A DNA stretch of 64,000 nt from Cyanidioschyzon merolae. Lineage: Eukaryota. Position 1 is the stretch's first letter. Every line of letters begins with the position of its first letter. Positions 1 to 36,900 of this stretch are shown in pieces. The notes under the pieces were generated by a model. That model did not search any database, was not told where the DNA came from, and worked only from the letters and a program-made list of their open reading frames with translations. The stretch lies in the NCBI GenBank assembly GCA_000091205.1, contig AP006497.2; one strand, 5' to 3'. Made by a program: the position numbers and the translations under genes.

Positions 1-3000
1 CCCCCATTCCCCCCACATTCCTTGATTGCAACAGGAAGCCAGTATTCGAGGCTCCCCTGGTTCAGGCCAATGATTCTGGATCACAAGAAAATCGAAAATG
101 CACCACTTGCCAATGTCCAATTTGCGACATAGGCCGTCAGAACGACCAGGCTTAAGTTCGGAGCCTCCAAGCGTCAATCCTTCTCCAGGCTACGAGATCA
201 TCGTGTCTCTACGAATGCTTGCCGCTGCTTCTGATCTGTGGGATCGAAACGTTGGTTTCGAAGCTCCTGGGCCCCGGACTTTGATGACTCGCTACTTCTC
301 TTGTTTATACGGTTGCTGCTCGGCGCCTCGTTGTCACTGAAAACGAATTGGACCTTGCTGGGCATCGCGACTGGAAGTGGCCGGTTGCTCCATGCACTAG
401 TTGGACATACCGGCTTCTGCTGCGGCCGAAACTTTGTGACTGCAGCTGGTTTTGCCACTGAATGTACTCGGACGAGGACAAACACAGCAGAAGGACCGGA
501 AGTCCAAGTTTAATCCGGATTCATCGAGGCGCGGCTGCGTTGAACGGGACGGGCTGCTTTGAATAGCGCAATCCCTTTTGAGCTTCGGGTAGGCTGGCCT
601 GCAAATACTTTCTGAGTATGCGACCTTTGAAAAAAATTTGCTGCAATGGAGCGTTTGTAGTCCCGGATCGTGCAAACCGACCTGACCTGGTGGGTCTTAC
701 CAACGGCTTAGGCTTATGTTAGCGGAGGTGTACATGTGGACCGGCAATACCGACACGAATGCGCGTTTAAGGAGAGAGCCGTTGTATAATTTTCTCTTGA
801 AACATAAACGTCGTTCAGCTCTGTCAGGATATTTGGAGCTTGTCTATTCTTCTTGGAACACGAAGTACGTAACAGAGTGGATACCTGCTGGTACAAGACT
901 CCTCTTCATCGACGTATGCTGCGGGGCTGCAGATGCTTGTCTCCAGGGAGAGTCGACCGCACTCTAGGGTTATGTGTATGCCAATGCTGTTTCGGGACGC
1001 CATATCTCGTCAGAAATCGCTCAAGCGAATATGCGTACCATGCTTTCACACCTATTCCCGTGACTTTCCGTTGTTGCGCTTTCCTATGAGGGAGTGGTAA
1101 GCTTTTCCACAATAGACCACTGCTCCCGCTGCCGTTTGGGGCCACTCTGGATCAAGGAACATTTATATTGTTTTTTCGGTTCGAGGGTATATGCTCGAAA
1201 GCTGTTTCTGGTAGCTTCCAAGCCGTAAAAATCTATATGCATGCACATTACTACTCCAAGACACATTCCACAGCGCAGACCATTATCATTCAGAGATGAA
1301 TGTACAGTCAAATAGGAACGTTCAGCAACTCGGTAGCCACCATACCATCCCAAACCATCGAAAGAAGTGAATTGCGGATGGTTCATTCTTCAGTGAACTA
1401 CACGTAATTCTGTACTCATCCACGAGTATAAGCTCCGATGCAGCCCATATGTAGATTAATATAAACCCACTGGTCTCCACAATGGGGTATACCTTTTCGT
1501 GAATAGTACATTGCCCTCCATTCTGGGACGAAGATTTCATTCATGCCTTACATGGTGGGGATTGTTGTTGTAGGATACACTTCCGTCTTGAATGGCATAC
1601 GAGCAACATAACGCGGATAAAATACAAGATAGCACGCATTGGATCTCGAAATGTGTCACCGTACTGCTGTTCCAATAAATCATTGCGGCTGCTCAGCAAG
1701 TTGCAGGTATATTAATTATGAAAGCCCTCGCCGAACAAACGCGCTGCACTGGTATATTCCATGCAGTCCATCTGCACATGGCAAGATACCCAATGTGCCG
1801 TCTGAGCCGAACGCTGTGTCCCATATTCTTGTCAGCGCATTCTCACGAGCAGGCCACTGCGCAGCAGGTGCCATCGCACTTGATGCGAACGTTGTGTACC
1901 AGCTTGCAAGGGCTCTATCGACCCCAAGACGCCATGTGCACGTCAGCGGTGCATAGAGGCCATCATGCGCCACAGCGGTATTGCCTGCCACCGAGTGGTC
2001 CAGCAGCTGTGCTGCGATGTCCACCAGAGCGTCGCATCTACCGATACGGGTGCAAGGGCTGCTGCTATGGCTGGGTCTCACCTCAGTGTCCTGTCGTATG
2101 TGCTGCTGCTGCTTTCGTGAAAAGCTCGACGCGGTGGTAACTATAGTGCTAAAAACACCAGATTGTATATGCATCGTATACACCAGGTGGTAGCTCGTCA
2201 ACCGCAGCTGCCACCAGAGGGCGTCTTGATCACTTGGTTCTCCGCTGTAGTGCCGGTCTCGTTGCGTAACCATACCGGGAAAGGGTCATCGATCAGTTGC
2301 TCACGCCTATCGGCGTCGATTACAGCCATGCCAGAAAGCAGCTCGCTTATCACCGGTCTATTGCCCTGACGATTGTTCGGTACATAGCGACCCGCTGGAG
2401 AGCAGAATGGAGAGCCTTCGCCAATAGAGATCTGCATTTCATCACGTTCATCGTACCCGATGGAGGCTCTGCAACTTAGCGCGTCGATGATACCATCAAT
2501 GTTGCCGTAGAGAACAGCGTCGGTGATGGTGCTAGTGTCGTTGACAATGACCTCGTCTCGACGCATAAGGTGAAGAGATCATTACAGAGAGTAGAAACAT
2601 ATCCTCCCCGGACAACGATCGTTTCTTTGTGTTCAGTAGTACAAAGAACTGCGTAATATTGCGCGTATCGATGCATTGCATTGCTTGTCTTGATAAGCTC
2701 ACCGCAAATGGATGCTCCGTCTGTTGTGTCCACGGAAGCCCTTCAAGTTTATTCAAGACTCTTAAGATTGGATGTGTAAAGGTCATTATCCACGAAGGGT
2801 AAAAAAGTTCTGAGGAAGATTAATAATGAGCGATTGAGCAAGTACCACCAAAGAGATATAGGGTGTTCGCTGGACCTACGGTGCCAGACGCGCCAAATCT
2901 GTGACCCCGGAGTGTTACTCAACCCGATATTCCCTGTTTGCCGTTTCGTGCCCCAGTGAAACCTACGCTGTCTCCCACATGCATCCAATTCTATACAACA

Positions 3001-6000
3001 GAACAAAATTTCAACTTCCATATATCTCTCAGATACCCTACTCATACGTCAATCAGTCCGAAACAGTCAAGGAGCTGATAGTTGTCATTAGGCTCTCGGA
3101 ATCTTTTGGTCCGAAGCGTCCAGTGGAATAACTGTTCGAAATGCTTAGCGAAATGTATCGCAGCTTTCATATGGGATTTGCTTTTAAGTGCGGCTAATCC
3201 AGCTCTATTCGGTGGTCACTGTGTTGTACTCTCACAAGCCACAATAAAGAGATTTACCAAGACTTCCAGCTGGACAAAAGGGATATAAATGGCCATCTAA
3301 GCCAACACAAGTTGGGCATGCTACCGTGCCTCGGGCGCGTCGCTCGTAGATGGGCTCTCCAGAGAACCGTACCTCGGGGACGCATTGGCCTCGTAGAATC
3401 GCTGCACCTAAGTTCATTCGCCAGGCAATAGATTTTGCACTGACGCATCACTGTAGCCCTAGTTCAAATTCCAGCTTCCATGTTACCAAAAGTTCCCATC
3501 AATTCCTGTCCAGGCAGCGGATTGCTTTCTCGAGGGCGGTATGTCATCGTTCTTGGCCGCTCCAACGGAGCCTTATACACCTGAAGAATTGAGTGCCTCA
3601 GAACCTCCAACCTATATCCATGAGAATTTGTTACGATAATTGTCCCAGAGATTATTGAAGACGCCGCACGTGTCACGACTGCCAAATAACCAGAGCACTC
3701 CGCTAGCACCGGTCCGGGAGGCCGCACCGTCCCGAGCCGGAAGCATGTTTCTGGTATATGAACCACCATGAACGCCTTAGCTACGAGAGCTACCTGTAGA
3801 AGCACTAGAACTGATCCAGGCCCAGAACACAGTATCTTCGGAATGAAGAATTCCATCAGTTGTGTGCATACTCTGAACGAAGTGTACCATAACCAAGAGT
3901 CTCACTACAAACATATATTGTGGTCGCATATGGTAAATCCGGACGGTTCCGCACCGGAAAACAAACGTTACTGAGAAAATCGAGTTCCCTGGAGTCTATC
4001 GGATATAGGGGCATTAAGCCGTTGTTGTTGCTCTTCGTGCTGCTTCTGGGCTTACCACCTAGAGTTTCCGGAAAGTATTCTGATGTACCCTCCTCGAAAT
4101 CGTGCAAGCACCGCAACCTGAATAAGGCAGATCTACGCAGGGCGCTCCCGTAACGAGACATTTCTAGTCTAAAACGATAAATATTTCTCTTAGTGCCTGC
4201 ACGATTGTAGCCTCGGGTCCAAATTCTCTCCCGGATCCGTGCGCACGATTTAATAGGAAGCAAACGTGCGTCGATTTTATGTACAGACATGAATTGCCTT
4301 TCTGTTCGTATATGAGGAGCAGTGCACGCAGTAAACTCAAGGTACCCATATATATTCGTCATTGTGCCCTGCACAAGAGCGCTGCAGCGCAAACAAGGGA
4401 GTGGTACGGCTGGGGTTGTAATTTTCTGGCAGCGTTTGGATGGCAATCATTCTGATTTAGAGTCGATACAGGTCTGTAAAACTCGGAGCTTCGAGTGCAT
4501 TCTGGCAGCAATTTTGGTAGACTCAAATCTATGTCCTTAAATACACGGAGACAACCAGTCATGCTAAGAAGAATGCCTTCTCTTTCCGGATACGGTACCA
4601 GTTTGATCCAGACGGTATTGCATATGCAAAGCACGGCCTTAGTCTCTACCAATATCGCGTCTCGCATGGCTGTGCAGAGCCGAAAGATTCAAAAACTCTA
4701 GCAAGGCGTCTGTCGCAAATGCGGACGCGGCCGGCTACGACTCAGTACGAAAACTTCCTCTTTCTCTGTATCATCTGATCATATTTCTTGAAATCCACAC
4801 TGGGCGTAAGTTCGGCGTCCACTTGCCACCACCATAAGGATGTGAGCCGTAAACAAGCACTGCTGTGTTGCCAGCCTGCTTATGATAGCATGCGTGTGCA
4901 AATTTTTTCAAAGCATCAAGCTTCTGCTAATTGGAACATACTTAATCATCGGTCTTCGTGCAGCGTCCGAGTAGGTATCCATTATTTTGATTGACAGGCC
5001 GGTTATATTCAAATGCAAAACTCATATTTGTACGGTCGAGAACGGTACACGGTAAATTCAGAATCGTTTCGGCCCGTATTATCAGATGTCTCCAGTGGCC
5101 GCTTCGAGTTGATTTCAATGATTGTTGTCAGTTCGAGCTCTCTTGTGCCTTTGTCTGCCCCAGGATGCTGCACGAGCACCTCTAATGCTGGCGCGGAGGC
5201 AGCAAAGTGACAGAACGGATTTGCCATGCAATTCCTAGAATCTCGTGTATAATTCGGGCCTCCTGGTCACATTTTTGGCTCGTAGAGTCTGCTTATGCCC
5301 GCCTTTACTTACAGTGCGACACTTTCAAGATGCGCAGCCAATGCGTAGGACCCTCGGGATCGATATATCCCTTGCAGATGTGCATATATATTCCCACCGT
5401 TTCGCGATGTTGGACTTTGCTTTGAGCCCACCTCTGAAAAGTCCGTGTGTAACTTGACCCAGGTGCTCGTACACGTTGAAGGTCCTTCCGCCAAATCGTG
5501 AAACCGCTGATTTTCGTTTTTACCCCAGGGGCACCCTGGACATGTTCGACTAATTTATCTGCCCAAAATACTGCCTGGCACAGATTCATTCGCAGTTCAT
5601 CGTTGAATTTCTTCGTCCTCCAAGCACGATGCGTTACTGTTTCGAATCGCGAGCGGATCCTGACGAGCTGCCATGACGGTACGAACGTGTTCACGACTTT
5701 GAAGAATCCAAAAATCTCTGCAAATGTCTGCCAGATGGATGCTCTAACGTCACAAGCTTGTGAGACAGTTGTTTCTCGAATAGGCGATCCCCACCTCAGT
5801 TCACAGGCTCTCTTTGCTGGCCGTCTCGCTGAGAGCCTCGACGGAACCTTCCCCGGATATGGAGCGGGAGCCCTCAACTAGAAAATTTCGCTATGGGATA
5901 TGCCAGAGCATATCAAAGTGCATTGCGATACTCTCGACTGCGTGCGACCGCTGCTTTCAGATCTGCCAGCAACAGAGTGACTCAGCCGATCAGACTTCCT

Positions 6001-6557: not shown

Positions 6558-8069
6558 ATGCTACGAACGCGCGGTTTTCAGTACAACCCATTGTTGAGGA
6601 CAGGTATTATTTTATTGCTGATGATATGGGCCCAGCTCTGCTCAGCTTTTCAGGAAGCAGACAAAACAAGTCTTGGAGCGAGACCTACGCAGGGGCTGGC
6701 GACGAAGATATCTTGCAGCCCAGCGAGCTACGTTCCCACATGCAAAATTGAGAGATATTGCGTCAGGCATGATACTTCAAATGGGTGTGCAACAAAGGAA
6801 CAAGCATGTTCACGAAATGAGCCACATCGTAACAGACTGCAACAGGTGGAAGATAGAGTCCAACATTCAAGGGGCTTCACAAACAGCATGTGGTATAATC
6901 TTTTGCGACAAAGACAGGAAAAGGTCAGTGTTGTGGACACGCGAGTTGATTGCAACTCTGAGTGCGAACAGAAAGACGCCCGAGTCTGCTTGGCATATGA
7001 GTATCGCAAAGTGTGTCTCATTTGCTCCTGCATACGCTCCTATTCGGAAATGAAGGACGCTGCTCAAAGGTACCCGGAGTATATTGGGAAGCAAGATCAA
7101 GGCCTCGGGATGCAAAGCACACTAAATGCGGGTACGAAGTACGAAATTTTTGAGAATCGTTTCCAGCATCGCTACAGATGCCTCTGGGTGCCTACAAACC
7201 AGGACGCAATCACGTCATCAAGAGGAATACTTCGGGCCATGAATTCTCGACTTTCCTGGATTAAGGCAAGATTGCAGAAGACTGGCATCCGCGATGCAGC
7301 ACAAGTACCCGCTGTGTCCCAAACGGAGCGTGAACAAAGTCAGTGGCTGCCAACTGAGCCCGTTGGGAGACGTGCGCCGGGGGGCGCCTTGCCTTCTATG
7401 CCGAATACCATTATCAGCTTGGTGGGAACACCATCGCTCTCTTTGTCACCAACACCACCGTCACCATCAGCTACTTTGGTTCCGACGACGCCAACGATGC
7501 TACCGACGCCAACAACAACGGGGATATCAACGGTTTTACCGAGCACCATGGAACCTCTACCATCACCTTCCACCGCGACAACATCTGCGATGCCAACTCC
7601 GATGATGCCATCGCCATCAACGTCAACCTCCACATCATCAGCTACGCCACACACATATATGCCGTCACCATCACCTTCGGCATCGACCATGACGCCTCCG
7701 TGGACGGCAACTGCAACATCGAGCTGCTCCCATACCAAGACTCATTCTCATTGGACCGGGACGATGACTGCGCCAAACCCGCCTCCACCGACATACATGC
7801 CATCCACCCAGTACCCTCCAGGGTGCTACACTGGCCCTCCGACCGTTATGTGCACATGTGTGTGCTCATGTCCGACAGCAGCACCACCCTCGATGCCGTC
7901 AACGATGTCACCGACATTCACCGCATCCGCGTTACCCTCTGTTTCTCAATCCTCAGCTACAGGTTCTATTACAACAACAACAGCATCAGCTTCCCCATCA
8001 ACGACCCTGTCTGGACCCGTGAGTAGAACACCATTCCCGTCAATCATCGTGACATTCATGTTCCGTTGA
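6558..8069 (+). CDS. Secreted Ser/Thr/Pro-rich mucin-like protein: signal peptide, Cys-containing N-terminal domain, ~250-aa STP low-complexity region, hydrophobic C-terminus
   Basis: Part of a 529-aa ORF (6480..8069). The internal ATG at 6558 is followed by a signal-peptide-like MLRTRGFQYNPLLRTGIILLLMIWAQLCSAFQ. A Cys-rich ~230 aa region precedes a long PTPTTTGISTVLPSTMEPLPSPSTATTS... tract. The ORF ends in the hydrophobic PFPSIIVTFMF, which could be a GPI-signal-like tail. No homolog recognised. Confidence 0.4.
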   Translation: MLRTRGFQYNPLLRTGIILLLMIWAQLCSAFQEADKTSLGARPTQGLATKISCSPASYVPTCKIERYCVRHDTSNGCATKEQACSRNEPHRNRLQQVEDRVQHSRGFTNSMWYNLLRQRQEKVSVVDTRVDCNSECEQKDARVCLAYEYRKVCLICSCIRSYSEMKDAAQRYPEYIGKQDQGLGMQSTLNAGTKYEIFENRFQHRYRCLWVPTNQDAITSSRGILRAMNSRLSWIKARLQKTGIRDAAQVPAVSQTEREQSQWLPTEPVGRRAPGGALPSMPNTIISLVGTPSLSLSPTPPSPSATLVPTTPTMLPTPTTTGISTVLPSTMEPLPSPSTATTSAMPTPMMPSPSTSTSTSSATPHTYMPSPSPSASTMTPPWTATATSSCSHTKTHSHWTGTMTAPNPPPPTYMPSTQYPPGCYTGPPTVMCTCVCSCPTAAPPSMPSTMSPTFTASALPSVSQSSATGSITTTTASASPSTTLSGPVSRTPFPSIIVTFMFR

Positions 8070-9339
8070 AGACCTCGAAGCACCGAACTGGGCATTGTGG
8101 TATGCAGAGAATCCGATCCGTGCGAATCCATGCGTTTGAAAGTGAAACGTGAATGAGATACTGTAGAAACCTTTAGACTGGGATGACGTACACGTGCAGC
8201 TGGATTCGTTTCTCGACTCTGCTGTACGCTTTCGCGTCCACCTGCGTGCCAAGGATGCTATCGTGCTTCTCGTTGAACGAATTTGCCTCTGAAAGAGTCA
8301 TTTCCTGATGCAATCATCAAAGTCACCAGGGGCCGATGCGCCCATTCAATGGACCGAAATCTTGGACCGAAAATTGAGCTGGCAATGCGGTCTTAATGCT
8401 TGCGACAAGAGCAGAGCCACTCAGTACAACGTTTGCAGGGAGAACCCGCATGCTCAGCAAAAGGAACACCACTCTAAATTGTTTTCTTTGGGTGTGAATT
8501 ATTTCTCCGAAACGTGGAAGGAGGAGATGTTCGGTGAGTACCCTTGCGGACTGAGGTGCGGCAAAGCTCACAGAGCTCTTCCCTAGTCTTCCTCAAGAGC
8601 GGTAGGCCTCGCAGGGAGCAGGTGTAACGCTTTGTGGCCCTTGAGTCCCTTCTGTCCAGGTGCAGGATCCAGTCAACCGTCATTGCTTCCAGCATGCAGG
8701 CGATCCAGACCAACTCCTCCGCCGTTCCAGTCAAAGGCCGGCTTTCTGCATGTCGCAGACGCAGCATGCGAGAACGGCTGTGGGCAAACCAGAGCAACCT
8801 CGTATGACGTGGCAACCGGTCCCCAGATGGTGGCCATTGTCAAGCGCGTCACAAAATAGTTCCGCAAATGGAATCTAGACGAAACTCCCAGCAGGAACCC
8901 ACATTGCTGTAGTGGATTTTGCGTACACTGTTGCATTCCGCTCACCTTGGCGTCAAACACTGCCACAAAAGATACTTCTTCAGCTCGCAAAAAATCTTCA
9001 TCTGGAACATTAGCGCGCAGAATTGTCGCTCTCTCTTCTATGGCATAGAATGTAGTCTCAGCTCTCCGGGGTGACAGTACCAGAACCCATTCAGAATGGT
9101 GCTCTCTCTCAACGCTCCATCTTTACTAGCCGCGATGTTTCGCACTATGGTATCCACGAATACCCGCTTCAGATCCAGAGCATCTGCTCAACAACACGCG
9201 TGATTCGTTATCCAGCGTGTAGGTGCGGTCACTGCAAGCCGCTCGCGAATAGCAGCACGAGCGGAACCTCGGATATAAAGCAATAATCACAGTTATATAC
9301 ATAGGTCTAATGCTGCCTCCAACCGCAAACGAAGCCGTA

Positions 9340-10090
9340 GGCATGATTCTTTTAGCTATACAGTTAATTCTAAATATACCATAATGTGTCCATGCTGGTG
9401 CGGACAAGGCTGCCATCCTTTTTTTGGTTTCACTCGGCCCTTCCATTTACCACGGATCCCAGAGTTCGGGATGGATGGGTAGTGGCGTTCGGGACGCGTC
9501 CATCATGCCCCAACCTACTTCAAGTTTCATGAATTTTTTCTTTCGGATATACTGGTCGTATTGTACGTTCTATCATGCGCTGAGCCTGCCGTGAGCACCC
9601 GCCTTAGCGCCTATACAGCTGGAGCAGATGCTGCAAGGAGACAGAACGGCTTTTCCGTACCACTTAAAGCGTCGACTCTAGGCGTGGTTTATCCAACACG
9701 AGGTCGGAGCACACAATCATTTAGCATACCTGCAAGATGCGCAGACAGACCTACTGCCTCCGGTAGCGCGAAGCAACGTATTACGAAACCATCACGACCA
9801 GTGCGACGCCCAGACGCAGCCTAGACACCCCTAGTCCCAACTTGGACTGCGTTGCAGATGAATTGCTCAGGTATCGCCACTGCACCCACCACTGGGAGAA
9901 GCACTTAGCAGGAGCCGGGCAGACTCGTTCGCTCTCGGGACCTTTCGCCTGGAGGGTACAGTTTCGGAAATGCGGTAAACCTTTCGCCCTTTTATAGCTT
10001 ACCGTAAAGAGAGGAAGATGTTTTTGCCGGATAGCTAGATAGTGGCTATTCTCTTCTCTTCTTCTCTATAGCTCGCTCGATACGCGCACC
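9340..10090 (+). repeat. Diverged dispersed repeat family B (~0.75 kb), copy 1
   Basis: By eye it aligns at ~70% identity with 18600..19350 and, in reverse complement, with 36600..36900. Shared blocks include ttcggatatac(c/t)ggtc, tgccgtgagcacccgcct, gcgcagacagacctactgcct and cgacgcccagacgcagc. No coding potential. Confidence 0.5.
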
Positions 10091-10325
10091 TCTGTATCTA
10101 GCAGGCATGAGTCATGGCGCGCGTCTCGCTGTTGAAGGAAACAGTGATCCTGATCATTAGCGTAACGCTATCATGTACATGTTGTAACGGTGTTGACGTC
10201 ACAGCAAACTATACTTATTTGTTCGATTGTGTTTTGAACTTCAACCAAGTGTGTTCAAGTGATTTTTCGCAGTTAATCGCAGACGTGCTCGAGAGTGCTC
10301 TCTTTCTCATAAAGAAAAAAGAAGG

Positions 10326-10787
10326 ATGGTTATGGAAACGGAAGTTGATTATTCTGGAGGCCCAGGGACGCCGGCTGCCAGAAAAAAACAAAAAATAGTG
10401 CCGAGTCCGGAAGAAAAGGAAGAGAAGAAGAACCGAAGGGGGGAAGTCCTACGTCGAATGCGGCAAAAAGGACGGCTGTACGACGAGATGATGGTGAAAA
10501 CCTTTCTTCTTGGACATATCAAGGATCCGTACAGGGAAAAGCTGCGAGACGCTATCGAAAAACGTGTCGACTCGTACTCCAAGAGTATTGTCAAGGCTTC
10601 GTCAGGACTGATGCATTTGGCGAGGGAGATGTACCGCGACGTGACGCACATGGAAACAGTCGATGTTCCTGACGAGTTTTTCGACAAGATGTTTATTCGT
10701 CAGCTGATGCCTGGCACAGAGAAAGCGCGGAAGGCAAACGAGCGGGTTCACGCTCTTCACGAAAACTACGCGGAATTCCGCTTCTAG
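10326..10787 (+). CDS. Transposon ORF1 (153 aa). The N-terminus is K/R-rich and NLS-like (PAARKKQKIVPSPEEKEEKKNRRGEVLRRMRQKGR); function unknown. It may be the N-terminal part of the Fanzor protein.
   Basis: It is conserved in copy B (VKTFLLGHIKDPYRE(K/R)L(R/Q)DAIEKRVDSYSKSIVKASSGLMHL). Both copies share an in-frame TAG separating it from ORF2. Copy B's equivalent is broken by a nonsense and a frameshift. Confidence 0.35.
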   Translation: MVMETEVDYSGGPGTPAARKKQKIVPSPEEKEEKKNRRGEVLRRMRQKGRLYDEMMVKTFLLGHIKDPYREKLRDAIEKRVDSYSKSIVKASSGLMHLAREMYRDVTHMETVDVPDEFFDKMFIRQLMPGTEKARKANERVHALHENYAEFRF

Positions 10788-10832
10788 GGTGCCCGATACA
10801 AGGGTGACGCGGATATTTAAAGCTATGGGGCG

Positions 10833-12479
10833 ATGAAGTACCTCACGAATCTGAAGAACTATTTGGCAATGAACCTCGAACGTTTCATGATACGCGCCGT
10901 GTTTGCGCTCTACCCTGGCATCTCTTGCAAAGGGATATGGACGATTATCAAAGGCATCACGAACGATCGCAAGCATGAAGATGAGGTCGAATTTGTCGTG
11001 AAGAAGGCGTCAAACGAGAGTACGAATTAGGATTCCGTCATCCGTGCGGTTGTACAAAAGCACTGTGCGGTACTGGGGTTGGCGAATCCAGCAGGAAAGA
11101 TATCAGAGTTGAAAAAAGATAAGGACAGATACTATCGCCTCGTCCTACGGTATTTCGTGTTTCTCGACCGAGAGCTCGAACGCAAGGCGGAGATGATGGT
11201 GAATAGGGAAAAATGAAGAGTGGGAGAGACGGAAGGCTTTCCTGATGGGGAAGCGCTTCGACGTGGTTCCAATGTGCAACATCAGGTCACATTTTGTGAG
11301 TATCGATTCAGGCGTCCTTCACGGCATCATGAAGGAGATCAGTCCCGAGTTCAATGTTAACAGGAAGGAGTTCAGCGGTGAAAACTGGGAGACGTCCTGG
11401 AAGAATATCTTCGATTTCAAACGTCTGAAAGTGAGCGAGCAAAAGTTGTTCACTGGGATGATCGAAACCGATGGAGTAGCCTTGTGTGTACACTATCGGC
11501 GGTTGAAGAAAGATCGTCCAGTTCCGCCTTCGACTGCGCCCTTGACGAAGGATGAAGAAAACAAAGAGGAGGATCCTGCGATGCAGGAGGTTGAGGATAG
11601 CGACCTTGTCGTTGGCGCGGCGAAGGATGAAGATGGGAAGGAGGCGGATCCTGCGACACAGGAGGTGCAGGATAACCACTATATCGTTGGCGCGGCCCCT
11701 GGGAATACGAATATCATAACCATCGCAGCACCGTAGCGTGTGGAAGATGGTACTGATGGTAACTTGCGTCAGAAATATATGCGTCTTTTGAGGTTCTCGA
11801 GAGCGAGATACTATCGAGAATCCGGTATGATGAATGCAAAGAAGAAAATCGAGATATGGAATGCAGGAACGAAAGAGCACCTGGAAGCTTTGAGCGAGGT
11901 GACTAGCCGAGGTGCCGACTTTCAGGCTTTTCTGAAATTCATGGATGATCGCGTTGCCCATTGGGATGCACTGTACGAGGAGTATACAAAGCCCCGGTGG
12001 GCACGTTTGCGTATGAATCTATACGGTGGGAGGCAGCGGGCGTTTACCAACTTTTTTAATGAGTTGAGTGCCCTCAAAGAAGACGAGACTCAAAGGCTCG
12101 TAATAGCGTACGGAGCAGGGCGATGGAAGACCCAAGAAGGAACTACGCCAGCTCGAACGACAAGAACGTACAAGGAGTGTCCACGGCTTTTCGTTACAAT
12201 ACCGATAGATGAGTTCCGAACGTCCTATACACACCATGAACTGGGGTGTACCCTTCAGAGGGTCGTGATGGAAAAGTGCCAGAGGAGCCCTGAGGAAATA
12301 GCAATTACGGACCGCTGACAGACGAGCAAATAGGAAGGAGGGCGAAAGTTCGTGGACTTCTTGCATTAGTGAGTACAACCAGTGATGGCAAGAAACGTAT
12401 GGAGTTTGTTAACCGAGACTTTAACGCCGCAGTCAATATACGGAGATGTGCGGTGCTGGAGAATAGACCTCCAGAGTAG
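10833..12479 (+). pseudogene. Fanzor (eukaryotic TnpB-like, RuvC-fold RNA-guided endonuclease) pseudogene, copy A
   Basis: Motifs read directly: [15 protein letters not shown] (RuvC-I Asp), IPIDEFRTSYTHHELGC (RuvC-II Glu plus Zn-finger-like HHCC), and RDFNAAVNIRR (RuvC-III, in a different frame at 12348..12479). Disruptions relative to copy B are a GAG>TAG at ~11031, a 2-bp deletion near 11190, an AAG>TAG at 11737 and a 2-bp deletion near 12320. Confidence 0.7.
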
Positions 12480-12942
12480 ACAAGAGGGAATTTTGTTGGA
12501 CAACCCCTCAAAGTGGAACTATATGAGAGAACGTTGGAAGCAGTAGTAGGTGGCCGGTCCGAAAAGACGAGGAGGCGTCTGCACATCAGCTGAAGACTTC
12601 TTGTCTAGGGCCCCGGTCGCCGCCACTACTGTACACGCCCGACGTCGTTCGACTTTAGAAGGGCGTTCGGATCGACTAGAACTTGGGGCAAGTATCCGAA
12701 GTGTTCGGGACTCAGTGTCGACAGGGCTCTTCCCGACCCATGCTTCTGAAGCATGCTCTTTTCATCGGATATGCGGTCGGTAGTCTGCGTCATCCTGCAG
12801 CGTCTCTCTGCTGACCGGTACTCTCCCGAATTCGGCACACTGGCAGTAGAACGCATCCTTCACATGCCTTGAACCATACCCTCCACTGCCAACATGCGCG
12901 CCCTGGGGTCGCCCAAAGCATCCGCGACCGAGCTTTGCATAT

Positions 12943-14250
12943 CTAGAGAATGATCTGACCGGATGCAGAGGTCGACAAGGTCTTGTGAGGCAGCACAATG
13001 CAGTTGCGAATCACAACGCCGCCGTCGCACTCGACATGCGATCCGAGGACGCTGACACGTCCGGCCTCGGACTCGATGCCGTCACCCTCGACACGAGCCC
13101 AGGGCCCAATGACCGACGACCAGCCGATGATGCTGTTTGCGATATACGCATGCTCTCTAACTACACAATCTTCTAGGATGATGCAGTGCTGAAGGCGAAC
13201 GCCTGCACCAATCACGCAGCCAGCTCCAATGGAAACGTTGGGTCCCACTTTCGCTGACGACGCCACCCGGGCCGTCGAGTGTACGAAAACAGCGCCTACA
13301 AATGTAGGACTCGTACTACTCATTGTCACTGAACCACGGCCTAGGTCGTCAGTGCTCTTGGTAAAGAGCCTGGAGGCTAATGCCTCCGGGCGGTAAGCAT
13401 GATCCGCAAGCTGCTCGGGATGCACCTCAGCATAGTGCTCCAGATAAAGTTTCGAGGCAAGCAGCGCAGCGGCCGGTTCCTTGATCTGACACCAAAAATC
13501 TTTGTGCTCGTAAATATATATAACTTTCCGACCCTCATAATGCATGATAACATCCTGCTCGAGTCTGATATGGTTGCAGTCGCTCTCGCTAACGCTAAAA
13601 AGGCTTCCACCGCTCGCGTTCTCAGTGAGCGCCCAGCGACTGCACTCTACACACGTCTTCTCCAGAAGTTCATAAAATGAACCTGTCGTTGCGATATAGA
13701 TACCACAGTTGATCAGGTTGCTTACCCAAGTCTCGGGTTTCTCTACATAGTGCAAGAGTTCGCAGGTATCGGGGTGCTTCACCATGCATCCGTACGCTCT
13801 TGCGTCCCCGGAAGGAGGCACCGTCTTTCCCAGCACAGTTAGTGGTTTGCCGTGTTTGCGATGAAACGCCAGCATATCGTTGAGAGGAAAGCTGGAGGCT
13901 ATGTCGCAGTGTAATATGAAGAGCACCTCGGGAGAGCCAGAGCGAATAGCGTCGCGGTAGCGCCAGATCCCGCCGGCTGTGCCTAGGGAGCTCTCTTCGC
14001 GCAGGTATCGCACACCAATACCCAAGTGGTTCGAGGCGTTCTGCACGAAGTCTGAGAACAAACTCTCGTCGTAAAACCCGAGAAGAATCACTTCGAAGAG
14101 CCCAGGGACCTGTGCCAATCGTTCGAGGTGATGCAGGATCATCGGCTTTCCCGCGATAGGGATCAACGGCTTCGGCAGGTCAAAGGATAACGGGCGAAAG
14201 CGCGTGCCCTTGGACCCGCCTCCTACTAGTATCACAGCCTTGGCGCTCAT
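12943..14250 (-). CDS. GMPPA: Mannose-1-phosphate guanylyltransferase alpha-like (GMPPA/GDP-mannose pyrophosphorylase A family)
   Basis: The 436-aa reading starts at ATG 14250 (MSAKAVILVGGGSKGTRFRPLSFDLPKPLIPIAGKPMILHHLE). It has the nucleotidyltransferase N-domain, HYVEKPETWVSNLINCGIY, a C-terminal left-handed beta-helix hexapeptide region, and ends ...VLPHKTLSTSASGQIIL, as GMPPA does. The ORF track's extra 120 upstream codons begin at TTG and are probably not translated. Confidence 0.85.
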   Translation of the reverse strand: MSAKAVILVGGGSKGTRFRPLSFDLPKPLIPIAGKPMILHHLERLAQVPGLFEVILLGFYDESLFSDFVQNASNHLGIGVRYLREESSLGTAGGIWRYRDAIRSGSPEVLFILHCDIASSFPLNDMLAFHRKHGKPLTVLGKTVPPSGDARAYGCMVKHPDTCELLHYVEKPETWVSNLINCGIYIATTGSFYELLEKTCVECSRWALTENASGGSLFSVSESDCNHIRLEQDVIMHYEGRKVIYIYEHKDFWCQIKEPAAALLASKLYLEHYAEVHPEQLADHAYRPEALASRLFTKSTDDLGRGSVTMSSTSPTFVGAVFVHSTARVASSAKVGPNVSIGAGCVIGAGVRLQHCIILEDCVVREHAYIANSIIGWSSVIGPWARVEGDGIESEAGRVSVLGSHVECDGGVVIRNCIVLPHKTLSTSASGQIIL

Positions 14251-18599: not shown

Positions 18600-19350
18600 T
18601 CAAGGAATGAAATTGAAATTCATGGACATGTGTATAAAATTTGTAATTTCGGACACGTCATGTTTGGGACGGAGCGCTTGGCGATTTCTTTCCGATGACG
18701 AGTCGGTTCCATTGACCATAGACCCCAGATTGCGGGATGGGTATTGGCTTTCGGAAAAGCGCCCATCATGAAGCACCAACACTCAAGTTCAGTCTCCCAT
18801 ACTTCATTTCGGATATACCGGTCATTTCGTATGTTCCACCGTGCGCAGATTACCTGCCGTGAGCACCCGCCTTTGCGCCTAAACCGCTGTACCAGATGCA
18901 TGACGGAGACAGCACGGCATTGACAAACCACAGAGGGCGTCGGCCCGAGGCGTGGTTCATCCGACACCGGATCGGAGTACATAATAATTCTGGGAGCCTG
19001 CAAGCTGCGCAGACAGACCTACTGCCTGTGACAGCGCGAAGGTATAGACTAGGAGTCCACTGCGACCAGGGCGACGCTCAGACGCAGCACACGTGCTCCG
19101 AGTTCCAGAATGAAGTGCGTTTCGGACGATCCGCTCACATCTTAGTACAGCACCCGCAACTGCAGAGTCGCACGGAGCACCTGCCCGGCAGACTCGATCA
19201 GTCCGCGGAACCTTCCGCCCAGAAGACAAACTTTCGACAAAACGAAAAGGTTCTCCCTCTTGTAACGTTCACCGTAGAAGCAGAATGAAATCTTTATCTC
19301 GTTCCTACTTAGTAGTTCGTTTCTGTTCTTTTTTCTATACAGCCCGCGCC
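18600..19350 (+). repeat. Dispersed repeat family B, copy 2
   Basis: Colinear with 9340..10090 at ~70% identity, lying between the MESH1-like gene start and ORF 19376. Confidence 0.5.
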
Positions 19351-19375
19351 AGGCGCGCACTTCATTTCCTCGACA

Positions 19376-20251
19376 ATGAATTCCGCTGGCCGTCTCAGCG
19401 AACCGCAACAGCGTCGGTCTCTGCGACGGGGAAGCTACTTCTTGGTTGGTATGGACGTTGGTTCCTTTGGTATAGATCCTGACATCCAGTTGCGGAATGT
19501 AAAGCTTTTCGAAGTGCATATACGCCGGACGTGGCTTGCGCTGACATTGGCACGGCGAGCTTGCTACGTGGTTCTTATAGTACTGTGCCTGCACGCTGCG
19601 TACTGCGCTAAAAAGGCTTGCAGCGCAGTCTTTTCAGTGCAGCTCTTTGGAACCAGTGTCCCCGCAGTTCAAGCCATGAGATCGAGTTTTGATCAGAGTG
19701 CTCCGGGCCAATTGTACCACGGGTGCTCTGCGAAATTTGTCAATCAGGATACTATGCACGGTGCGTCTACCTCAGACTGTGAAACGTGTGACCTTGCGTC
19801 GGCCCAGCTCGCGGAGAAACCTTGTACAAACGCCTGCGCAAATAGCCCACCGGGAACAGGCTTGGATTCTAGCGGTGTTTATGGGTGTGCGGTGGAAGCG
19901 ACGCGCGGGACAAGAACCCGCGCGGTGCTCCGTCTTCTGGAAGCATTGAAGTACGCTACTTTGTGGGCACTGAGAGGCTTCTTGCCTCTATGGATCTTTT
20001 TTGGTATGGGTATTTACAGGGCGTTTCTTTTGGACTCGCAACTATACGTTATTCGTCTGAACAGAGTATTGTCTCGCTTCCATATCGTCTTTTCGCGCAG
20101 CGCTCGCCGGCTGCACAAGGCCGAGCGATATGCCTCTAGAGCGCAACACCCGAGTTCATGGACGTACGCCGAGCAACGCATTGCGAGGCCACCAGAATCG
20201 GAGCGACTCGAGCATCGCGCTGATCGGGGAAAACTGCAGAGGACCTCCTGA
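19376..20251 (+). CDS. Hypothetical protein (291 aa) with one predicted TM segment (LWALRGFLPLWIFFGMGIYRAFLL)
   Basis: ATG-initiated ORF of moderate length. No recognisable domain. It begins inside the tail of repeat B copy 2, so it could be spurious. Confidence 0.2.
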   Translation: MNSAGRLSEPQQRRSLRRGSYFLVGMDVGSFGIDPDIQLRNVKLFEVHIRRTWLALTLARRACYVVLIVLCLHAAYCAKKACSAVFSVQLFGTSVPAVQAMRSSFDQSAPGQLYHGCSAKFVNQDTMHGASTSDCETCDLASAQLAEKPCTNACANSPPGTGLDSSGVYGCAVEATRGTRTRAVLRLLEALKYATLWALRGFLPLWIFFGMGIYRAFLLDSQLYVIRLNRVLSRFHIVFSRSARRLHKAERYASRAQHPSSWTYAEQRIARPPESERLEHRADRGKLQRTS

Positions 20252-24729: not shown

Positions 24730-25895
24730 TAACTCCTAAAGTGAAGCTGGACGGACCCCTGCCTCCACAACAACTGGAAATCCAAGTCGCTTTCGCTCCC
24801 CAAATTCTGTGATCCGTTGACTCGCTGCGCAGTACGGCCGCGCGCCCTGCTCCAGGTGATCGCGCGCTCTGGGGGGGAGACCCTGAGAGCGCCGGCGTCG
24901 CCTTGGCGTCCATCTACCGGTCCAATCAGCGACAAAATGGACAGATCAAAAGACACCGCCTGCGCACGGTTGTTGCGAGAACTTTCACCTCAATGGTGTT
25001 TCGCTCCCAGGGGCGTGTGATGAAAACGTATTTTCGCGGTTTATGGCAGAACTGTTCCAAGTACGTCCATTTGAAGGACTAAAATTTGCAAGAGAAGGGC
25101 ATGGACGTGTAAGTCGGGGACCCAGAAAGCCGTCATGAATAGATGCCGAACAAAAGAAAAAATCCTTTTCTCACCGATTATCGAGCGTAGAAGAGCAAGT
25201 GATGATGATGATGAAGAAGGTGGCAGAGAAGAGGGGAGGTAGACGGCCAAAAGCGCATGCTTGATGCAACAATGACGAAACTACAGTGGCACAGAGGTCA
25301 CGAGTGACTTCGAGGAATCATTGCAAATGTGAGTTCCACCAGAGTCAATAAACGCAAAGAGTTCGTGAAACGGGACTTCGACACCGTCATTCATATCAGA
25401 CGATAAGTGATGCCGACGACGAGACCCGAGGAGGTGTCACAATCCTACTTTCTGGGGCAGCCTCTCAGGCTCGATATGTGCCTGGGTAAACTGAACCCGA
25501 TAGCATCGGGCCGCTCAAAAAAAGGCTGGGAGCGTCTGCGCGTGGGTATATGTATTTTCCTTCCGTGGTCGGGAAACGTATTTTGGTTCATTGGCTGTCG
25601 ACATGCGTCGATTGCTCTCGCACAGTGATGCTCGCCTGGATCGCTATGATCGCGGATCGCGGCTCCTTTCAGAAGCACTGGGCAGCGATAGAGACGTGCG
25701 CTGCGCCACAGTCCAATGTAGAGCAATATGTGCCGCTGTCACTCGCGAGGAGAGCTGTGGGCTCGCTAATCCTTGAAAGCGATACAAGAGGTGCACTACG
25801 GGCACGAGACGCACTCGTTGGACTGCTTCACTTGGCGGAAACGAGCAGCCAGTGGAATTTGCGGACGAACAAAAGTCAGCGGCATGAAGACCAAC

Positions 25896-29779: not shown

Positions 29780-32560
29780 CGCCGTCAGCGGTGAACGCTG
29801 CCGTACGAACCAGAGGATACCTGTCCTAAGCGCAAGCAATATACCTGGATCACGGAGATGCGTACGCGGCACGACGTCTGCGTCCGGGCGGCCTGGTATC
29901 ACGTCCGCGACAAACGTCTTTCAAAAGAAACACGTTGCTGCCAGTGGTACAGAAGTGGCCGCAAACGCGCCTTAGACAAATTGGCACCAATTGTTGTATA
30001 GACGCCTCCCCGTCTTTTTCGACCGGCCACCTACTACTACTGCTTCCAAATTCTTCTCATATAGTTCCACTTTGAGAGGTTGTCCAACAAAATCCCTTCT
30101 TGTCTACTCTGGAGGTCTATTCTCCAGCACCGCACATCTCCGTATATTGATAGCGGCGTCCAAGTCTCGGTTCACGAATTCCATCCGTTTCTTGCCATCA
30201 CTGGTTGTACTTACTAGTGCAAGTAGTCCACGAACTTTCGCTCTCCTTTCCATTTGCTCCTCCGTCAGCGCTCGGTACTTTTTTATATTCTCAGGGCTCC
30301 GCTAACACTTTTCCATCTCCACTCTCTGAAGTACGCACCCCAGTTCATGGTGTGTATACGAGGTTTGGAACTCATCCACAGGTATCGTAACGAGACGCCT
30401 TGCGCACTCCTTGTACACCCTCGTCGTTGGAGCTGGCGTAGTCCCATTTCGTGTCTTCCAGCACCCTGCTCCGTACGCTACGACGAGCCTTCGAGTCTTG
30501 TCCTCTTTGAGGGCACTCAACTCATTGGAAAAATTCGCGAATGCCCGCTCCTTCCCACAATAAAAATTCATTCGAAAACAAGCCCATCGGGAATTTGTAT
30601 ACTCCTCCCATAGTGCATCCCAATTGGCTACACGAATTGCCATGAATTCCCGAAAAGCTCCAAAGTTCGCTCCTCGGCTAGTCACCTCGCTCATAGCTTC
30701 CAGGTGATCTTTCATTCCTGAATTCCAAGTCTCGATTTTCTTCCTCGCATTCATGGTTCCTGATTCTCGATAGTATCCCGCTGTCGAGAACCTCAAAAGA
30801 CGCATGTCTTTCTGACGTAATTTACCATCAGCACCATCTTCCGCACGCTTGGGTGCTGCGATGGTTATGATATTCGTATTTCCAGGGTCCGCACCAACGA
30901 CAAAGTCGTTATCCTCCACCTCCTGCATCGGAGGGCCAGCCTCCTCTTTGTTTTCTTCATGCTTCACCGCGTCAACGACAAGGTCGTGCCCCTCAACCTC
31001 CTGTGTCGCAGGATCCGCCTCCTTCTCATCTTCATCCTTCGTCACGTCAACGACAAGGTCGTTAGCCTCCACCTCTTGCATCGGAGGACCAGCCTCCTCC
31101 TCTTCTCCATCCTTCGTCACAGGCGCAGCCGAGGGAGGGACTGGCCGATCTCTCTTCAACCGCCGATAGTGTATACACAAGGCTACTCCATCGGTTTCGA
31201 TCATCCCAGTGAACAACTTTTGCTTGCTCACTCTCAGACGTTTGAAATCGAAGATATCCTTTTAGTACGTCTCCCAATTTTCACCGTTGAACTCCTCCCT
31301 GTTAACATTGAACTCGGGACTGATCTCCTTCATGATGCCGTGAAGGATTCTGGAGTCGATAGTCACAAAATGTGACTTGACTTTCCACATTGGAACCACG
31401 TTGAAGCGCTTACCCATTAGAAAAGCCTTCCGTGCCTCCCACTCTTCATTTGTCTCTTCACTCAGTTTCACCTCTGCCTTGCGTTCGAGCTCTCGGCCCA
31501 GAAACACAAAATAGCGCAGGATGAGGCAATAGTATCTTTCCTTATCTTTTTTCACCTCTGATATCTTTTCTGTTGGATTCGCCAACCCCAGTACCGCACG
31601 GTGCTCTTGTATAACCGCGCGGATGACGGAGTCCTCATTTGTGCTCCTGCGTGACGCCTTCTTGTAGACAAATTCGACCTCATCTTCACGCTTGCGATCT
31701 TTCATGATGCCATTGATAATCGCCCATTTTCCATTGCGAGAGATGCCCGGATAGAGTGCAACCACGGCGCGTATCATGCAACGTTCGAGGTTCTCTGTCA
31801 AATGGTTCTTCAGGTTCGTGAGGTACATCATCGCCCCATAGTCGTAAATATCCCGGTCACCCTTGTACCGAGTACCCTCGAACCCCTAAAAGGGATGTTT
31901 TTCGTGTAGGGCATGCACTTGCTCATTTTTCCCTCCGTGTTTGCCCTGAACCAAGCATCAGGTGACGAATAAAGGTCACGTCAAAAACTCGTCTGGAATC
32001 TCGACCGTTTCGATGTGCATCACGTCGCGATACATCTCCCTCACCAAATGCATCAGTCCTGACGACGCCTTGACAATACTCTTGGAGTACGAGTCGACAC
32101 GTTTTTCGATAGCGTCTTGCAGCCTTTCCCTGTACGGATCCTTGATATGTCCAAGAAGAAAGGTTTTCACCACCATCTCGTTCTACGGTTGTCTTTCTTG
32201 TCGCCTTCAACGTAGGGCCTCCCACTTTCGGTCCTTCTTCTCTCCCTTTTCTTCTGGACTCGGCACTGTTTTTCGTTTTTTTCTGGCAGCCGGCGACCCT
32301 GGGCCTCCAGGATCGTGGACTTGCTTTTTCATAGCTTTCCTTTTTTAGTTTTTTTTTGAAAAACAACGCTCTGTGAACGCTTCTGTTATATACTGCGAAA
32401 AAAACTTGAATACACTTGTTTGAGGTTTGAAAGAAAAATGAACTAAAAAACTGTACTCTGCTAAGACCTTAACGGAAATCCAATTTTTCCAGTACAACAA
32501 CACGCTACTGATCAGGATCGCGTTTCCCTTCAACAGCGGCATTCGCATCGTGTCAGTAGA
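29780..32560 (-). mobile_element. Fanzor/TnpB-family transposon, copy B (inverted relative to copy A; degenerate)
   Basis: Colinear with copy A across a 5' small ORF (MRMPLLKGNAILISS vs MARVSLLKETVILIIS), ORF1, ORF2 and the 3' non-coding region. Homology decays gradually toward 29780. Confidence 0.7.
30104..31831 (-). pseudogene. Fanzor/TnpB-like RuvC nuclease pseudogene, copy B. The single reading frame is retained but interrupted by in-frame stops.
   Basis: All four ORF fragments (31262..31831, 30302..31231 and the RuvC-III segment ending at TAG 30104..30106) share one frame. The interruptions are TCC TGG>TAC TAA at ~31260 and CAG>TAG after ...VEMEKC. The motifs read [34 protein letters not shown] and RDLDAAINIRRCAVLENRPPE. 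Confidence 0.7.
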
Positions 32561-36300: not shown

Positions 36301-36640
36301 GGAGCCTCAGCGCTCATCAATGGCGAACAAACTCACATGCTACGTTCTAGGCAGAAGGTCCAGCGAATCGGATGCGCACACGGGCCCAGTGCGCTTTCTG
36401 CGCCTACCCACTGTGGTGGGTATCGAGCACAAACCCACGTTGCCAACCGACAACAATGCATTCCATGCATGATCACGAAGGAGAGAGGCGGCTCCCAGGA
36501 TATATCCTAACAACCAAGTTTCTCCAGCGTGTCGTGCAGCGAATACAAGCCTGCATCCGCAGACTGTCCGAGCACAAACTGACGACGAGACCCGATTCTA
36601 CGTCGGGTGAACCACACCTCGAGCCGACGCCCTTTGTGGT
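33400..36640 (+). mobile_element. 5'-truncated non-LTR (LINE) retrotransposon pseudogene carrying reverse transcriptase
   Basis: RT motifs are split over frames with in-frame stops: NYRTIRLIPSIMKLL, FIDFQEAFDTVPH, RGLRQGDPASPLLFNIF and LLFADDVVLL. A downstream Cys/His motif, HxLLQCPRWKQERSELL, is typical of the LINE C-terminal zinc knuckle. A 14-nt poly-C run lies at 36135..36148. No endonuclease domain was seen upstream, which is consistent with 5' truncation. Confidence 0.8.
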
Positions 36641-36900
36641 ACGCCAACGCCGTTCTGTCTCCGTGCAGCGACAGCACCGGCGCTGTAGGCGCTATTGCTG
36701 TCGCTTTCGGCAGGTACTAGGCACACACGATAGGACGTATGAAATGACCAGTATATTCGAGAAGAAGTAGAGGTAATGTAAAATGGAGGTAGGGGGTTGA
36801 TGGATACCTCACCTCGCACTGAAAACCCCAAAAAGAAAAGAAAAATGCGCATAATCGGAGAACGCTGGCCTATGGAAACGTCTTGGCAATGAAAAAAATT
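36600..36900 (-). repeat. Dispersed repeat family B, copy 3 (truncated)
   Basis: The reverse complement of 36640..36900 aligns with 9400..9660 (cgaatatactggtcatttcatacg... and ...gacagaacggcgttggcgtacc). It abuts the LINE 3' end. Confidence 0.45.

Follow-up and report, generated by a model that had tools for sequence, protein, structure and literature searches.

The two Fanzor copies described here are, with high confidence, old and inactive relics of the transposon family CMe-1A, whose intact form encodes a single 734-aa Fanzor1 protein, and the TAG codons that appear to split each copy into two open reading frames are unrelated lesions. Both copies lie in a 64,000-nt window (the whole stretch of DNA that was analysed) that forms the left end of chromosome 15 of Cyanidioschyzon merolae 10D. 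A sequence-only reading of this window had noticed a TAG between a basic N-terminal frame (ORF1) and a nuclease frame (ORF2) in each copy, and the point between them is referred to here as the junction. It had placed the two stops at a homologous position and considered an ancestral two-ORF architecture, a progenitor that was already a pseudogene, an unrecognised intron or a single protein that had been split.

The source of the window was established by seven of its long ORFs, which exactly match deposited C. merolae 10D proteins, including CMO006C, CMO007C and CMO015C. Among the exactly matching proteins are an S-adenosylmethionine decarboxylase, UCH-L5 and an Rrp5 homolog. CMe-1A is a Fanzor1 transposon family of C. 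merolae with about 150 copies, each about 80% identical to a consensus of about 3 kb (Bao and Jurka 2013, Mobile DNA 4:12; PMC3627910). The element lacks terminal inverted repeats and shares its 5′ 635 bp with TE-N2_CMe. The entry 'CMe-1A (3169) ... 734 (1)' in Additional file 1 of that paper denotes a 734-aa product from a single exon; nucleotide and protein consensus sequences are given in Additional files 2 and 3, and some copies are stated to remain intact (PMC3627910). The family, its single-ORF structure and its age have been known since 2013. When the published 3,169-bp consensus was compared to the window by blastn, both copies were assigned to CMe-1A at 82-88% identity, copy A aligning over consensus nt 15-3137 and copy B over nt 687-3169. 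Such full-length alignments agree with CMe-1A being an old family with about 150 members, as published, and the two copies differ from the consensus only by copy-specific decay. The continuous 734-aa, one-exon ORF is present in the consensus and lost in copies A and B, which are pseudogene members of the family. The claim that the window holds two copies of a Fanzor element was borne out, both by the consensus alignment and by a match of the family profile to Fanzor1, described below. Exact look-up returned no NCBI annotation for the copy A ORF1 or the other ORF fragments; a 163-aa fragment alone was present, as anonymous JGI/ENA ORFs.

Copy A (9441..12636, plus strand; 82-88% identity by blastn with the consensus) is a near full-length but decayed CMe-1A that includes the 5′ TE-N2_CMe-like part. 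Codon alignment to the consensus ORF located its Fanzor1 ORF remnant at 10332..12608 (plus strand), with six in-frame stops at consensus codons 152, 163, 233, 444, 692 and 730, two frameshifts (-2 at about 11208 and -1 at about 12301) and one extra in-frame 75-nt repeat. The stop that had been taken as the end of ORF1 is the TAG at 10785..10787, in codon 152, which is AAC (Asn) in the consensus and GAG in copy B and in the outside copy L032. A second stop, TAA at 10818..10820 in codon 163 (TAC, Tyr, in the consensus), is also found in L032 and L040 and is absent in copy B, which has Tyr there; it falls inside the interval covered by the sequence-only reading, which missed it. The catalytic Asp of RuvC-I has been changed to Ala at 11695..11697, where translation gives GAAPGNTN compared to GADPGNTN in the consensus and copy B. 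A TAG at 12477..12479 occupies codon 692, the same codon as a stop in copy B. Translation showed that the coding sequence of copy A is scattered over several frames.

A blastn search with the junction region of copy A found one other copy in the window, on the minus strand at about 32538-29947 and 83% identical. This is copy B (29915..32554, minus strand; 85-87% identity to the consensus by blastn), a decayed and 5′-truncated CMe-1A that has lost the first 686 bp. Its Fanzor1 ORF remnant, at 29972..32332 (minus strand) by codon alignment, contains two extra in-frame repeat units, six in-frame stops at consensus codons 42, 50, 149, 357, 626 and 692, and two compensating frameshifts (-1 at 31983 and +1 at 31934). 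The supposed ORF1 stop in this copy is the TAG at 31886..31888 (minus strand) in codon 149, which is TAC (Tyr) in the consensus and in L001 and lies three codons upstream of the position of the copy A TAG. The stop in codon 692 is the TAG at 30104..30106 (minus strand). Copy B stays largely in a single frame, yet it has many stops. Neither copy is able to make a nuclease.

The repeat is an in-frame 75-nt (25-aa) tandem repeat with an acidic unit, found directly upstream of RuvC-I at 11546-11696 (plus strand) in copy A and at 30895-31120 (minus strand) in copy B. Its copy number is one in the consensus, two in copy A, three in copy B and four in L001.

Each copy does carry a TAG at the junction, as had been reported, but the two are not at a homologous position. 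In copy A the context is CGC TTC TAG GGT (TAG at 10785-10787), reading ...YAEFRF-stop-GARYKGD, and in copy B it is CCC TTT TAG GGG (TAG at 31888-31886, minus strand), reading ...HEKHPF-stop-GFEGTRYKGD. A MAFFT alignment of the DNA of the two copies is free of gaps across 10735-10835 and sets the TAG of copy A opposite a GAG in copy B and the TAG of copy B opposite a TTC in copy A. The codon alignment of copy A, copy B, the consensus, L001 and L002 likewise has no indel at the junction in any of the five sequences, and the consensus there reads HENYAEYRFNGTRYRGD. The two stops, in codons 152 and 149, are thus 9 nt or three codons apart, and the earlier alignment by eye had concealed a three-residue gap (GA compared to GFEGT). 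Codons 121-150 are the least conserved part of the ORF, with 66.7% identity between copies A and B compared to 85% for the whole ORF. By chance, a pair of stops one to three codons apart arose in 27% of trials in which six stops per copy were placed on 263 stop-prone codons. The shared ancestral stop that was taken to define a two-ORF Fanzor arose from misalignment where the gene varies most, and the two TAGs are best read as separate, unrelated nonsense mutations of ordinary pseudogene decay.

The ancestry of each stop was examined with 82 copies from outside the window, namely L001, L002 and 80 loci from a metagenome scan, about 75 of which cover codons 149-152. These are environmental relatives, distinct from the other approximately 150 copies in the 10D genome. 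At codon 152, the covering copies have GAG, GAA, AAC, AAT, GAC, GAT or AGC, with the exception of L040, which is the ortholog of copy A (99.2% identity over 6,074 bp, both flanks included). In L032, which matches copy A at 93% identity, the TAA at codon 163 is shared whereas codon 152 is GAG. This indicates that the TAG of copy A is a single G-to-T change that occurred late on the copy A branch. At codon 149, most outside copies have TAC or TTC, and stops are found in at least four lineages: copy B; L003, L007 and L030; L019, L021, L022 and L024; and, as TAA, L051 and L063. A neighbour-joining tree was built from 1,300 nt with the test codons left out. Copy A was paired with L032, and copy B was paired with L001 in a different clade. 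L003 and L030 were paired, L051 adjoined L047 (TAA compared to TAC) and L019 stood apart. Pairwise identities were star-like at 78-87%, and copies A and B, at 85%, were no nearer to each other than to other copies. The tree and these identities indicate that the codon-149 stops are recurrent hits on a Tyr codon. The earlier conclusion that the stop predates the divergence of the two copies does not hold, since the sister copies have sense codons at both positions (GAG at 152 in L032, TAC at 149 in L001).

We also considered that the copies with TAG at codon 149 might form one clade with copy B, and this was rejected. Copy B is 83.4% identical to L003, 84.7% to L030 and 78.3% to L019, compared to 86.7% to L005.

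The L040 sequence (JGI contig Ga0080006_1151082) aligns to window positions 7885-13955 and is the same decayed copy A with every stop retained. A public metagenome holds a Cyanidioschyzon genome that matches strain 10D with 99.2% identity at the copy A locus.

Next to be weighed is whether the element encodes one protein or two. The repaired copy B, used as a protein query, matched three distant relatives and 24 close ones, the latter from JGI metagenomes. P0001, the protein of L001, is a 752-aa open frame that runs from codon 24 to codon 699 through the junction, where it reads HEKHPFYSLNGTRYKGD. P0023 has an ATG start and is continuous at the junction, reading HENHPEYRFSGARYRGH. The three distant relatives are P0025-27, proteins of 682-690 aa that carry PF07282 and have about 30% identity; each is a single ORF that extends from a basic N-terminus (TKRKRS) through the ORF1-homologous region to RuvC. 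Because the consensus, the 752-aa ORF and the 682-690-aa relatives are all continuous at the junction, ORF1 appears to be part of a single protein. Substitutions agree with this. In codons 2-148 of 37 non-redundant copies, stops made up 0.9% of single-nucleotide codon changes compared to 5.3% expected, and the synonymous fraction was 0.32 compared to 0.22 expected. This deficit of stops and excess of synonymous changes indicate that the N-terminal region was kept as coding sequence, although the RuvC half is more constrained, with a synonymous fraction of 0.54. Taken as sequence evidence, these data favour the K/R-rich "ORF1" being the N-terminal part of one protein. An AlphaFold2 model of P0001 from a 27-sequence alignment (mean pLDDT 34.9, pTM 0.23) was too poor to place the junction.

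An ancestral two-ORF layout, with an accessory K/R-rich protein of about 150 aa and a separate nuclease, is extremely improbable on these data. It would account for a TAG no more than three codons apart in both window copies, after a basic N-terminal segment of about 150 codons, and for the recurrence of codon-149 stops in several family members. However, the published consensus is a single ORF of 734 aa in one exon, P0001, P0023 and P0025-27 are unbroken across the junction, and in the 30%-identical relatives the ORF1-homologous region is held within a single ORF. In most outside copies neither codon 149 nor codon 152 is a stop, and Tyr codon 163 and codon 692 gather stops as often as codon 149. 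The "ORF2" of copy A has no intact frame either, the next ATG-initiated ORF being only 65 aa (10833-11030). The alternative favoured in the sequence-only reading, a single-protein origin in which an NLS-bearing N-terminal part was split off, is the one that the consensus, P0001, P0023 and P0025-27 support. The check it had proposed on other copies gave a sense codon at the junction and a continuous ORF of about 700 aa, the result it had foreseen as evidence for a nonsense lesion.

None of the 82 outside copies is fully intact, the best being L001 with a 1-nt deletion at codon 17. What is called intact here therefore rests on the consensus, on the statement by Bao and Jurka and on the long partial ORFs. 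Relatives of the CMe-1A protein are encoded by 136 stretches of public metagenomes, and each copy examined has stops, frameshifts or both.

The one stop that is truly at the same codon in copies A and B is the TAG at codon 692, just past the last RuvC motif (RPPE-stop-TR). This codon is unusually variable in the outside copies, with nine states (TTG, CTG, TCG, TGG, TAG, ATG, AAG, GCG and TCC), and its TAG recurs in unrelated lineages: L014, L015 and L017; L071; and L072, L073 and L075. The 3′ end is well conserved between copies A and B, including the sequence past codon 692, and the 43 codons that follow have a synonymous fraction of 0.50 compared to 0.24 expected.

The shared codon-692 stop, together with the possibility in principle that disabled copies are mobilised in trans, could point to a common progenitor of copies A and B that was already a pseudogene with the junction stop. 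This is very unlikely, and it fails at the junction site itself: the stops there are in different codons (152 and 149), L032 and L001, the sisters of copies A and B, have sense codons at those sites (GAG and TAC, respectively), and the star-like tree puts the two copies in separate clades. The TAG at codon 692 that would speak for it is shared by L014, L071 and L072 in a codon of nine states. Stops recur at the same rate at codons 149, 163 and 692, with four non-redundant copies each, and the lineages with a stop number at least four at codon 149, three at codon 163 and four to five at codon 692. Among the 37 non-redundant copies, eight codons have at least three stop hits compared to 2.7 expected, and three have at least four compared to 0.44. 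Part of this clustering results from lesions shared by sister copies (copy A and L032, L003 and L030, L023 and L041). Stop positions are mildly over-dispersed, and some stops may be inherited within sub-lineages rather than independent. Most of the excess is accounted for by uneven mutation rates and by common ancestry within the sample. Another explanation is that elements already truncated, to the NLS-bearing N-terminal piece of about 150 aa or by the last 43 residues, proliferated in trans, or that codon 692 is a natural alternative end beside the presumed guide-RNA region; we consider this very unlikely.

Two further explanations would leave the ORF functionally continuous. In the first, a short unrecognised intron would take the stop out of the mRNA. 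The context of each TAG does resemble a 3′ splice site (YTTYTAG|GG), and frame-preserving GT...AG intervals that span the stops exist (83 in copy A and 101 in copy B), for example the 42-nt interval at 10746-10787. Against this, C. merolae has only 27 introns (PMC4829280), and Cyanidiales introns have a nearly invariant GUAAGU 5′ splice site and ACUAACC branch site (bioRxiv 10.64898/2026.05.17.725761). GTAAGT and ACTAACC are absent from the entire copy A ORF and from the junction region of copy B; in copy B, GTAAGT occurs once, at 30214, some 1.7 kb downstream from the junction. None of the 83 and 101 intervals combines a GTAAGT-type 5′ site with the branch motif, so the junction does not have the features of a Cyanidiales spliceosomal intron. 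The putative interval is also conserved coding sequence in the consensus and relatives, and removing it would leave five further stops and two frameshifts in each copy. The intron suggested earlier thus has a vanishingly small chance of being real. In the second explanation, TAG would be reassigned or read through, in keeping with TAG being four of the six stops in copy A and four of the six in copy B. This is just as negligible a prospect. TAA and TGA stops and frameshifts are also found in both copies, the host genes of the window are ordinary ORFs that exactly match standard-code proteins, and copy A has lost the RuvC-I aspartate. A tRNA scan of the window found no tRNA genes and, hence, no lead to a suppressor tRNA. 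With so many extra stops of all three kinds as well as frameshifts, neither one intron nor reading through TAG could restore the frame.

The relationship of the single protein to Fanzor1 was examined by profile comparison. A profile of the CMe-1 family and its 30%-identical relatives matched the Spizellomyces punctatus SpuFz1 structure 8GKH in the PDB (E = 3.8e-9), whereas a single-sequence phmmer search of the PDB had no match. The likeness to SpuFz1 (8GKH, 9CEU-9CEZ) begins at the 'ETDGV' strand and extends over the RuvC motifs, PVDEFRTS and NRD..NAA.NI among them. The N-terminal half of CMe-1, in contrast, could not be aligned to that of SpuFz1. In Pfam, neither the consensus nor the repaired copy B protein had a significant match, the sole hit being PF07282 at E = 0.2-0.5; relatives P0025-27 do carry this Cas12f1-like TNB domain. 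The RuvC residues of the Bao and Jurka motif, D-X(125,275)-[TS][TS]-...-RD, are present in the consensus and copy B as GADPG, DEFRTS and NRDFNAAINI, and copy A lacks the first Asp (GAAPG). The authors of the motif themselves placed CMe-1 in Fanzor1 (PMC3627910). The C4 zinc finger between [TS][TS] and RD, canonically CxxC...CxxC in TnpB/Fanzor, is absent from CMe-1, which has only THHELGC...C and no second Cys pair. That pair is replaced by LVSTTSDGKK in CMe-1, and P0025-27 retain CxxC...C...C. The zinc-finger region (consensus codons about 607-670; about 12210-12400 in copy A and about 30170-30360 in copy B) is the most strongly constrained part of the ORF in the family.

The description of ORF1 as K/R-rich and NLS-like was accurate: a basic cluster near the N-terminus reads AAGKKRKTVP in the consensus and AARKKQKIVP in copy A. 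N-terminal NLSs have been validated experimentally in other Fanzors (Jiang et al. 2023, Sci Adv; PMC10530073), and the cluster is at the same place, as is TKRKRS in the 30%-identical relatives. By analogy, the KKRK or KKQK cluster fits the Fanzor N-terminal NLS pattern. Compared to a separate accessory protein, however, the predicted NLS segment of CMe-1 belongs to the nuclease polypeptide. The literature on other Fanzors suggests that the intact CMe-1A protein would have both NLS function and RNA-guided nuclease activity.

Taken together, these observations point to the following history. The gene of intact CMe-1A has no intron, and its 734-aa Fanzor1 product is basic and NLS-like at the N-terminus, variable and helical in the N-terminal half, and a RuvC nuclease in the C-terminal half. 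After insertion, each copy decayed separately, with codon 152 changing from GAG to TAG in copy A and codon 149 from TAC (Tyr) to TAG in copy B. The junction TAGs belong to a set of lesions that counts, per copy, at least six nonsense mutations as well as two frameshifts, and the 'ORF1 + ORF2' appearance results from two lesions that are unrelated and happen to lie three codons from each other where the gene is least conserved. The fitting annotation for both loci is that of CMe-1A pseudogene relics. Copies A and B should not be cited in support of an accessory ORF, a split NLS domain or an intron in Fanzor elements, so the practical value of the result is negative and it matters little beyond that.

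Other traces of the family were seen in the window. A solo copy of the CMe-1A 5′ 668 bp, a TE-N2_CMe element (81% identical), is present at 18693-19363 on the plus strand and stops 13 bp short of the long ORF at 19376-20251 that contains CMO006C. Elsewhere there are a 200-bp fragment of the TE-N2_CMe element and two weak CMe-1A-like fragments, with listed sites at 36591-36793 (minus strand) and 25031-25467 (plus strand). Base composition also marks the two copies, with a GC content of 0.49 at 10001-12000 and 30001-32000 compared to about 0.54 in the flanks and a strong, strand-specific GC skew of +0.18 and -0.23, respectively. Both features result from the purine-rich coding strand of the Fanzor ORF.
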